From an uncultured Eubacteriales bacterium (GTDB taxonomy: Bacteria > Bacillota > Clostridia > Oscillospirales > Oscillospiraceae): a DNA stretch of 31,273 bases. Location of the stretch: assembly GCA_900320765.1 (NCBI GenBank), contig ONTN01000001.1, forward strand, positions 1 through 31,273, read 5' to 3'. Positions within the stretch are counted from its first letter, which is position 1, and each line of letters opens with the position of its first letter. The notes beneath the pieces are model-generated. The model did not search any database, was not told the origin of the DNA, and was given only the letters and a program-made list of their open reading frames with translations. Both the position numbers and the translations under genes were made by a program. Below, one piece after another: positions 28,075 through 31,273 of this stretch.

Positions 28075-30784
28075 TTATTTAAGCTCAGTCCAGGTCTCGG
28101 CTTCTCCGTCTTTCTCAAAACCGTGGCCGTTTGCGGCTTCCATAATGCCGTAGTAGTTCCAATGGCTCGTCTCCACGTCGCCGAAGCTTCTCAGTTCGGC
28201 TGCGTGGCCGTCTATAAACGCCTTGTCAGGCGTTCTGTCCAGCACTCTGTTCAGCACGGCGGCGACTTCCGTCCTCTTTATTTTTTCCTCCGGCTTGAAG
28301 CTGCCGTCGGGGTATCCGTCGATCCATCCTAACGTGTATGCCTTTGCTATATCGGCGTATGCCCAGCTATCCTTGGCAACGTCGGTAAAGCTTACCTCCC
28401 CTTCCTCCGCGTCAAAGAATCTCGTGCAGATAGAGACGAACTCGGCTCTTGAAATTTTTTCTTCCGGGCGGAAGCTTCCGTCGGGATAGCCCTTTATTAT
28501 GCCGTGAGACGCAAGAGTCGTAACAGCGTCGTAGTACCACCTGCCCTCTTCGACGTCAGAGAGGGCTATCTCCGTCTTGCCCGGCATCTTATTCTTCAGT
28601 AGATTATATATCACCTGTGCCGCCTCGGCTCTTGTGAGCGCGTCAAGAGGCCTGAAGCTGCCCTTATACCCCTTGAGGTATGCGATGTGCTCATCGCGGA
28701 TAAGCTCCGGACGTACTTGAGATGCTGGCGGATCAGTCTTCTGAGGTGCCGGAGGCTCTGACGTCCAAACTGCCGTGTAAACAGCATCCTCAGTCACGGT
28801 CTCGCTGAGTTCAGGCGTCCAGCCCGCAAATACGGCTCCGCTCTTCGTTGGATCTTCAATATGGGGCGTTTCAGAGCCGAGAGCGCATTTTATCTCAGCA
28901 AGCACAGTGTCACCATCCGTATAGGTTACGGTTCTGCACTCTCTGACGATATAGCAGGTATCTCCGTCGTACTCGGGTATGATATTATCTATCTCAACGG
29001 CTATATACCCATCGGCGACGAATTCGCTCGGGTCGAAGCTAAAGGTGCCGCCCTTTACGACGCATTCGTTCTCCTCGTGAGCGGAAAGTCCCTCTCCGTT
29101 CTCTCCGGCATAGGTCAGGACCGGGTTTCCGGAGATAACGACCTTTGCCGGTATTCTTCTTCCGTTATCGTAGGACGGATACTGTGCGGAGATAAGAGCT
29201 CCGCTGCCCTCGAACACTATTCTGCCCTCGCCCGTTATCTCAAGTTCGCCCTCATGTACAAGGAAGGGACCCTCATTAATATTCCAGGGTGGAGCGGAGG
29301 TCTTGAGCTCCTGACCGCCGAGGTCGAGGAATATTTTTCTGCCCTCAAGCCAAAGCGACCACGTCGTTCTGCCCTCATAACCCTTGAGGAGCCTTACGGT
29401 ATTTCCCGCCTTGATGCTGTAAAAAACGCTGCCCAGCTCGGAATACTCGCTATTGCTTCTGAATTTGAAGCCCGTCTCAACTTCCTCCGCAAAGAAGTCT
29501 CTGTCGTCGCCGTAAAAATAGAGCTGGTCGCTGGAGTACATCTCCTTCGGCTCTATGTCAAAGCTGCCCCAGACAACGCCGTCTGACTCCTCGAGGTCAA
29601 GGACTATGCCCTCTCTCCAGCCGCCGAAATGGGTATAGAGCAAGAACGCGTTATCAGTAACGGATTCCACCATTCCCTCCGGGAGCTTGACTCTGCCGCT
29701 CATGGGCATCTTAAGGTGCGTTTCGGTATGGCTCTGCCTTCCATTATTAAGCTCCGCGCCGTTTACATAGGCGGTAGAGCTCTCATTAACGGAAAGGTTT
29801 ATAACGAATTCTCTGTTTGTCGCGTAGTCATCGTATCTATAGTAGCTGCCGCTCTCTTCGACTCTGTAATAAACGTCTATATAGATCACAGCCTCAGCCG
29901 GGGCGTTCCCGTTCTCCGTGTCGACAAGCTTGTCATCGACTACGGCGTATCTGCCGCTTGCCATTACAGCAAGAGTGGAAAGGTTTCTGATCTCCATGTA
30001 CCCATTGCCGGAAGTATAAGCGTCCATGCCGATGGCTTCGAGGTCAGACTTGTTCATTTCAAAGTAGCTTTGAGTGCTGTTATCGTAAACTGTATCAAGG
30101 ACCCGGAATTCCTCCCTAAGCCCCTCGATGTCCTTGAGCTCAAGGACAGGATAGAAGGTTATGTGTTCGCTGGGAACACTGCGTGCAGCTGAATCGCTTG
30201 GGAAATGCTCGGCAAAGATACACCGATAATAATACTCTTCCTTCGTCATAGTAAGGAGGAGTAAAGCGCTCCATATACTTCTCAGCGCTCCAGCCCTTAA
30301 ACTCGAAGATATCCTCATTCGGATTCCCCTCCGGAGCAGTAATGCCGCTTCCGGATCTCTCCGCTTCAAATGAAGTATAGGTAGACGTGGGGTATCCGTT
30401 TTCCATTATGTACCGCACGAACTCGACTTTTAGCTTATCGAGCCGGCAAACCCCGTAAAGCACGGTCTCCCCGTCCGGGAAGTCGTCGGCATTTATTGTA
30501 TCGCCCTCGTAATACTCGGGCGTTTTTGCACCGCGCTCGGTGCTCCAGCCAATGAACGTATAGTCATTGTTATAGTAATAATAAGGTCCGTCTGTCGGAA
30601 CGCCCGGAAGAGTCGCAGTCTCTCCGCTCTTCAGATAGATAGTCGGAAAACTGCCGTGATAGGCCTCCACATCCTGAAAGCGGATGATCTTTTCCGCGTC
30701 GCTCTCGTCCGCAGCCGCAGCGCCCAAAGGCAGGATACCGACGCAGAGCACAATCGCAAGAGCAAGAGCTATAATTTTTCTCAT
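28075..30784 (-). pseudogene. SLH-domain cell-surface protein (signal peptide, InlB-B/Listeria-Bacteroides-like repeats, 3 SLH domains), frameshifted by a ~70-bp insertion
   Basis: The N-terminal part starts at 30784 (RBS AAGGGGG; MRKIIALALAIVLCVG...AAAA) in one frame. The C-terminal part (...FAGWTPE...YTAVW, GYPDGSFRPEEKISRAEF, GYPDGSFKPEEKIKRTEV) is in another frame. Removing 30171-30240 gives one 879-aa ORF. Confidence 0.85.
30171..30240 (-). other. Inserted fragment encoding an asparagine synthetase B-like C-terminal peptide
   Basis: Translates as (TK)EEYYYRCIFAEHFPSDSAARSVP(SE), closely resembling the AsnB C-terminal motif KEEYYYRSIFxEHFPSxSAAxSVP as recalled. Its excision restores the host frame. 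Confidence 0.7.
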
Positions 30785-30903
30785 AATAAATCCCCCTTGT
30801 GTTTCTATTCTGAATATATCATGGTTTTGTTGCTTCGGCACTTACTTTTTCTCCTTTTTTATACTAATACAATAACACAATTACGCCCGTGTTGCCAGAA
30901 CGA

Positions 30904-30935
30904 TTAAGGCGCGAAGCCATTGCTTCGCGCCTTAA
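30904..30935 (-). terminator. Hairpin terminator after the last ORF
   Basis: TTAAGGCGCGAAGC-catt-GCTTCGCGCCTTAA, 13 bp past the stop. Confidence 0.7.
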
Positions 30936-30948
30936 CTCTTTGTTTTGT

Positions 30949-31273
30949 TTACTGCTTCTCGTAGACGTACTTGTAGGTCCACATATCCTCGGGATCGCCG
31001 TTGAAAATCTCAAGCTCGCCATCCTTGAGGGTGCCGGTGTACTCGATTTTGATGCCGAGGAAGGTCTCGGTCATGGTGAAATCTTCACCGTCGAGCGTCC
31101 AGGTTACGTTAAGCTCGAGGTCATCGCGCTTATGTACGCCCTTGCCGTTTGCCTTGAAGGTGAAAGAGACCTCCACGAGATCCTCTGCGTTTGCCGTCTG
31201 TTCGAACGAGGTCATAAGGCCCTGATAATAGACGCCCTTGTACTTGTTTGCAACGACGGACATGCCGGCGCCG
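30949..31273 (-). CDS. C-terminal part of a hypothetical (probably envelope) beta-rich protein containing a phage tail-tube-like segment; probably 5'-truncated by the window edge
   Basis: The frame is open to the window end (GAGMSVV...) and no RBS is visible before ATG 31263. The C-terminal NVTWTLDGEDFTMTETFLGIKIEYTGTLKDGEL resembles clostridial beta-barrel lipoprotein domains. Confidence 0.65.
   Translation of the reverse strand, partial: GAGMSVVANKYKGVYYQGLMTSFEQTANAEDLVEVSFTFKANGKGVHKRDDLELNVTWTLDGEDFTMTETFLGIKIEYTGTLKDGELEIFNGDPEDMWTYKYVYEKQ

Follow-up and report, generated by a model that had tools for sequence, protein, structure and literature searches.

Tail tube proteins of the TP901-1 family (TIGR02126/PF06199) represent one of the described systems with which the locus analysed here can be compared. 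The likeness consists of a 37-aa segment that shows complete identity to P0168, a member of this family, in the C-terminal strands, whereas the window (that is, the whole stretch of DNA that was analysed, 31,273 nt in length) holds just 37 of the 183 residues of that protein, and has neither the N-terminus of the tube domain nor a tail module. The small lipocalin-like lipoproteins of Clostridia, to which the real gene at this position belongs, are typified by a signal peptide, a lipobox Cys and an eight-strand barrel, whereas in the open reading frame (ORF) found in the window neither a signal peptide nor a lipobox is encoded, and the barrel is without its first two strands. A third comparison concerns RpiB/LacAB isomerases (PF02502), as the conserved GAGMSVVANKYKG stretch found in such enzymes of other rumen Clostridia is matched by the last 45 nt of the window, presumed start codon included; unlike in a true isomerase gene, only 14 codons are present, and their source is another genome.

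Finally, the locus resembles the chimeric contig ends that arise in short-read de Bruijn-graph assembly (Lui et al.) in its parent-identical segments, in shared strings of approximately k length, in its position at a contig end and in the lack of independent support. It differs from the usual contig-end chimera in that two successive joins unite three genes within 116 nt, with both joins being in frame, such that the product looks like a designed fusion.

The contig end and its reading frame

The window corresponds to the entire contig C82 of a metagenome-assembled genome (MAG; 201 contigs, 1.6 Mb, 89% complete). A minus-strand ORF (30949..31272) with its stop codon at 30949 remains open to the contig end, and encompasses 104 aa if initiated from the ATG at 31263, upstream of which 10 nt are visible that include no Shine-Dalgarno-like sequence. 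In a previous sequence-only reading of this DNA, the peptide NKYKGVYYQGLMTSFEQTANAEDLVEVSFTFKANGKG, encoded at 31248-31138, was proposed to represent a segment of a phage major tail protein that had been fused in frame within a host-type gene, and that was bounded by two pairs of short direct repeats, i.e. GCAAAC (31251-31246 and 31152-31147) and AAGGGCGT (31239-31232 and 31143-31136). The segment and both repeat pairs were indeed found to be present at these positions, and the borders of the segment as determined here lie within a few bases of those proposed. The 8-mer AAGGGCGT occurs four times in the window as compared with 0.96 expected copies, a count that was reached in 4 of 100 shuffles, and the repeat pair alone is only weakly beyond chance. 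Both repeats fall within the zones in which the source genes of the ORF overlap, these being 31137-31157 (21 nt) and 31229-31248 (20 nt).

Sequence comparison showed that the terminal region of C82 (31158-31273) was assembled from three unrelated genes, the parents being a lipoprotein, a phage tail and an isomerase gene. These last 116 nt are, with high confidence, considered to represent an inter-genome assembly chimera rather than a biological gene fusion. The features on which this interpretation is based are as follows.

30949..31157, minus strand: genuine 3' part of the gene for a lipocalin-like lipoprotein of 130 aa (codon ~62 to codon 130, with the stop codon; identity to protein P0123 and locus L007)
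31137..31157, minus strand: junction 1, an exact 21-nt string common to the lipoprotein and phage tail genes (encodes (F/L)KANGKG in both)
31137..31248, minus strand: 112 nt derived from the gene for a TP901-1-family major tail protein of a siphovirus (corresponding to codons 120-156 in P0168, 183 aa)
31229..31248, minus strand: junction 2, an exact 20-nt string common to the tail and RpiB/LacAB isomerase genes (encodes NKYKGV(Y) in both)
31229..31273, minus strand: 45 nt from the interior of a gene for an RpiB/LacAB sugar-phosphate isomerase, as found in other rumen Clostridia (44/45 nt identical to locus L023)
30905..30945, minus strand: G+C-rich inverted repeat straight after the lipoprotein stop codon (read from the sequence; self-complementary match at 30904-30935)

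The lipoprotein gene and its chromosomal context

An exhaustive phmmer search using the ORF as a query returned two classes of matches, namely lipoproteins and true tail proteins. The first class comprises ~125-aa proteins with a signal peptide, a lipobox and a conserved domain, which match the ORF from residue ~34-40 to its end at 55-75% identity, while members of the second class, representing major tail proteins of 170-200 aa, match ORF residues 7-47 only. Both exact parents (P0123 and P0168) were found in a protein collection clustered at 90%, and their matches on the ORF overlap in KANGKG only. Residues 63-130 of P0123 (130 aa, 38 contigs) are 100% identical to ORF residues 40-107, in agreement with the earlier assertion that the sequence downstream of the segment does not continue as a tail protein. 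The possibility that the ~125-aa homologues, when aligned over ORF residues 4-107, contain the same segment was rejected because P0123 is 100% identical from residue 40 onward only; a loose YKGxY...FSLxL..GKG pattern is all that these homologues have in common with the tail segment.

At the nucleotide level, positions 30400-31157 of the window are identical to locus L007 (758/758 nt), which diverges beyond 31157. In five independent ENA assemblies, the gene encoding P0123 was shown to be located in the order cytochrome c552 – ResB – CcsA – lipoprotein – SLH protein – 548-aa protein, and the gene order at its 3' side is the same as that in the window. Furthermore, in another genome of the same genus (G003), an ordinary lipoprotein gene without a tail-like part is found directly after the genes for ResB and CcsA. 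Within this genus, the lipoprotein gene directly follows those for ResB and CcsA, which specify system II cytochrome c biogenesis (L007:478-4393; L005, which is G003:C147), and in L007 it is also located after a gene for an NrfA-like cytochrome c552; a member of another family (G027) displays a different context. This ResB/CcsA neighbourhood may reflect a functional link for the lipoprotein family.

P0123 possesses a signal peptide and a lipobox Cys, with C24 being nearly invariant in 61 relatives, and its mature domain was predicted, with high confidence, to form an eight-strand β-barrel (pLDDT ~96; strands at 35-44, 58-62 and 67-129). The contig departs from this gene at codon ~62, and the window ORF, which retains residues 63-130 of the true protein, contains no signal peptide, no lipobox and no complete barrel, the first two barrel strands being absent. 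Structural neighbours of the lipoprotein in the AlphaFold DB are mostly named 'Lipocalin-like domain-containing protein', with DUF5640 among the names, while PDB matches to FABP/calycin folds are weak (TM about 0.4-0.5, rmsd 5-6 Å). The predicted fold is that of a calycin/lipocalin-like barrel, with the weak PDB matches permitting no closer assignment. No Pfam family was matched by the 130-aa lipoprotein, which is conserved in many Clostridia. Based on these alignments, positions 30949..31157 are the sole portion of the ORF that is real in this genome, and the inverted repeat at 30905..30945 probably functions as the intrinsic terminator for the true lipoprotein gene.

The MAG itself includes a contig, C25, that covers cytochrome c552 and ResB with 100% identity to L007 1-814 and 871-2981, and that terminates there, leaving ~1.2 kb to the position from which C82 is genuine. 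Judged from this collinearity, C25 is the true upstream neighbour of C82. An exact k-mer overlap between the end of C82 and other contigs of the MAG was not found. Alignment of C25 (G000 C25:6643-9567) with L007:1-2981 showed that C25 is without 56 nt (L007 815-870) in the cytochrome c552-like gene, this being either a frameshifting deletion or a further assembly discrepancy that affects one of the two sequences.

The phage tail and isomerase pieces

The tail-like part of the ORF was compared with profiles of major tail proteins. The phrog_238 profile ('major tail protein') matches ORF residues 8-47 (E 5e-10), while TIGR02126, representing the TP901-1 family, is matched with E 0.0024 and 18.1 bits against a cut-off of 37, across profile positions 98-135 of 135 only, and Pfam Phage_tail_2 (PF06199) with E 0.038 and 14.5 bits against a cut-off of 23.8. 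For each of these three profiles, the window ORF scores under the curated cut-off because it holds the C-terminal strands only. ORF residues 9-45 are identical to residues 120-156 of P0168 (37/37), and this 183-aa protein, the cluster of which comprises 44 member sequences, attains 74.9 bits over positions 2-135 of TIGR02126 and E 4e-13 for PF06199. The resemblance to tail-tube proteins, noted without database searches in the sequence-only reading, is thus substantiated by both the phrog_238 match and the identity to P0168. The other part of that reading, i.e. a host-type gene surrounding a foreign segment, likewise agrees with the homologues, which are without the segment.

The corresponding DNA (31137-31248) is identical over 112/112 nt to loci L012, L013 and L014, all of which depart from the window sequence at either end of the piece. 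The locus encoding P0168 displays a standard siphovirus tail module, consisting of a head-tail connector, the major tail protein, a TAC_12 chaperone, a tape measure and a Dit protein, and the real tail gene carries its own, different C-terminus. When the 9-kb phage locus L012 was compared with the MAG, the match was confined to the 112-nt piece, and a profile search of the whole MAG yielded no Phage_tail_2 matches besides the tip. The genes of the window downstream of the tip encode a surface protein with a signal peptide and SLH domains and other host functions, and none is a phage gene. Together with the sequence of C25, these phage-locus comparisons indicate that the organism has the normal locus, and that the bin is without a trace of the phage beyond the tip. 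By the same sequence comparisons, the 112-nt tail piece is foreign to this genome. It stems from an uncultured siphovirus of the rumen, the tail module of which is conserved in at least four assemblies (L012-L015). A blastn search with the tail piece against GenBank phages returned no match, and the donor phage is known from rumen metagenome contigs only.

C-terminal decoration of tail tube proteins, for example by Ig-like extensions, is known in general, and the ORF might in principle represent the 3' end of a decorated phage major tail protein that is cut by the contig end and carries a C-terminal lipocalin-like domain. The tail-like part does correspond to the last tube strands (TIGR02126 positions 98-135 of 135) and is followed by another domain. 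However, the 62-aa remainder constitutes part of a lipocalin-like barrel only, the real tail gene has a different C-terminus and a normal tail module, and, as five assemblies show, the DNA that follows the tail piece is collinear with the host chromosome and without phage genes. The DNA upstream of the tail piece corresponds to an isomerase gene rather than to a tail gene and, with the host chromosome downstream, refutes this interpretation, to which virtually no probability is assigned.

The isomerase origin of the outermost part (31229-31273) was apparent from several comparisons. The isomerase-type peptide encoded here (24 residues) hits Pfam LacAB_rpiB with E 3e-4. A codon-degenerate scan detected the peptide in eight MAGs from rumen or gut that represent other Clostridia, where it is always located inside an ORF of ~158 aa, and the tested example of these ORFs, L023, the DNA of which matches the last 45 nt of the window at 44 positions, was assigned to PF02502 with E 1e-43. 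Logan contigs from four studies cover 31229-31273 at high depth with 1-4 differences and then continue as ...KGVYAVACEG, diverging from the window before 31229-31232. The apparent ATG at 31263 corresponds to the internal Met of ...CGTGAGMSVVANKYKG..., which represents the conserved GAGMSVVANK stretch. The Logan, MAG and Pfam matches of 31229-31273 thus identify the supposed start codon as an isomerase-internal Met. Among 40 relatives, the isomerase 42-mer was found, with up to three mismatches allowed, in the window only, and the isomerase locus had no match anywhere in the MAG. In one Christensenellales MAG (L024:5746-5807), the RpiB/LacAB frame is open for ~96 codons upstream across an Ala/Gly/Pro/Thr-rich stretch, which is probably an open frame and not a real extension.

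These findings also bear on the reading in which the ATG at 31263 starts a stand-alone cytoplasmic protein of 104 aa. An ATG-initiated ORF of this length is present, but the 10 nt upstream of it contain no ribosome-binding sequence, the frame continues without interruption as far as the contig end, and no other record of the product was found. As the ATG is an internal Met of the isomerase GAGMSVVANK motif, such a protein is refuted by the isomerase origin of 31229-31273, and is regarded as having a negligible chance of being real.

Joins between the pieces and support across them

When the true genes for the lipoprotein (L007) and the tail protein (L012) were compared, the longest exact string in common was found to be 21 nt in length and to correspond to 31137-31157 of the window; it is located at position 185 of the lipoprotein gene and position 449 of the tail gene, and is unique in the window even with three mismatches allowed. 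The longest exact string common to the tail gene and the L023 isomerase gene is 20 nt, and corresponds to 31229-31248. Alignment of the five independent ENA assemblies with the window starts at ~26935, shows 96.6-99.1% identity and ends at 31157 in every case, past which these assemblies run into the normal 5' end of the lipoprotein gene, CcsA and ResB.

Logan contigs of four ruminant-gut studies were aligned to positions 30400-31273 of the window. In each of the four runs, a contig identical to the window departs from it at 31157 with the same continuation, one of these contigs being 16.5 kb in length with zero differences. On the minus strand, the continuation reads ...DEFSLEL followed by KANGKGVHK, which is the sequence of the normal lipoprotein. 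Positions 31180-31209 were uncovered in three of the four runs. In run X4, a 151-nt contig (X4 record 15) holds 31137-31248 between flanks that are unlike those of the window, and all three parents are present in this run on separate contigs. No Logan contig of the four studies bridges 31157/31158 or 31248/31249 in the form seen in the window, with the qualification that Logan drops rare variants.

In a run index queried with the tip alone, no run contained all sampled 31-mers, the best being X4 with 10 of 11. The maximum shares of 0.75 for a 424-nt query and 0.91 for the tip fit missing junction words, but are based on too few sampled words to serve as evidence by themselves. An exact search of JGI metagenome contigs found neither the window junction nor the true lipoprotein junction and thus does not discriminate between the two forms. 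No assembly other than that of the window was found to encode the chimeric product. The support across both borders, a check of which had been proposed in the sequence-only reading, is therefore lacking, as every independent assembly and Logan contig set departs at 31157.

Three parents, the exact breakpoints between them and the passage of independent assemblies through the site in parental form were thus shown. The segments of the tip are identical to separate parents that continue differently beyond the breakpoints, at which exact strings of 21 nt and 20 nt, approximately the length of the smallest k, are common to the parents, the k values being assumed. The initial k is 20 for the assembler IDBA-UD and 21 for both MEGAHIT and SPAdes.

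In the proposed mechanism, the chromosome carries an ordinary gene for a 130-aa lipocalin-like lipoprotein downstream of ResB and CcsA. The assembler would have left this gene via the 21-nt string that is coincidentally common to a phage major tail gene, and would then have tracked the phage gene for 91 further nt. The next exit would have been via the 20-nt string common to the tail gene and the RpiB/LacAB gene of another rumen bacterium, with the contig ending 25 nt later. Both joins would have been made by a de Bruijn graph with a k of about 20-21.

Two observations count against a chimera. Both joins keep the reading frame, which at face value is as in a selected fusion, and the 20-nt overlap requires either that k is at most 20 or that a local isomerase variant has one or more additional bases in common with the phage gene. 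The in-frame joins and the length of the chance matches are explained by the shared strings encoding the same peptides (KANGKG and NKYKGV) in the same G+C-rich preferred codons.

The alternative that deserves most consideration is a real, rare recombinant allele, in which fragments of the tail and isomerase genes were captured into the lipoprotein gene via illegitimate recombination at short homologies of 20-21 nt, with the assembler following the minor variant. The position of the in-frame joins at microhomologies is in line with such an allele, as are the absence of the segment from homologues and the genuine tail similarity, and rare variants may escape Logan contigs. However, it requires that fragments of two donors were captured one after the other, both without any divergence from the donor sequences seen in other samples, and these captures would have to stop exactly at the contig end. 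Neither junction was seen in any assembly or run examined, the upstream region on the MAG's own C25 is normal, and another foreign patch is present 1 kb away on C82. In addition, the signal peptide and lipobox would be lost from the product, as would strands one and two of the eight-strand barrel. A recombinant allele is for these reasons deemed very improbable, and marginally less credence still is given to its specific form, a low-abundance rumen recombinant with an in-frame capture of the tail and isomerase fragments into a surface-lipoprotein gene by 20-21-nt microhomology. If true, such a recombinant, combined with the nearby patch (30166-30230), would point to a fragment-capture process that acts on envelope genes, a process for which the present results give no support.

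In comparison with these alternatives, an assembly chimera of three parents remains the preferred explanation, and a biological in-frame fusion between phage and host, as had been suggested from the sequence, is without support. What had been viewed as a segment within a gene is, in the deposited sequence, part of a chimeric contig-end tip, with the sequence upstream of the segment, including the ATG, belonging to an isomerase gene. The phage-host fusion gene is not a real feature. As no phage-host fusion protein exists here, the value of the locus is that of a quality warning, as an in-frame ORF with a phage tail match of E 5e-10 could be misreported as a prophage remnant, a horizontal transfer or a domain fusion. 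Perfect identity to several parents, overlaps of 20-21 nt and a position at a contig end together form a signature to screen for, and C82 should be trimmed at 31157.

A further irregularity was observed at ~30166-30230 of the window, where ~65 nt could not be aligned to L007 or L009, the flanks being near-identical to these loci. This block looks like a second assembly patch on C82, the last 1.1 kb of which thus contain no fewer than two short patches of foreign sequence. The patch is located inside the SLH surface-protein gene, and splits what is a single 917-aa gene in L007 into two overlapping minus-strand ORFs (30140-30841 and 28075-30369).
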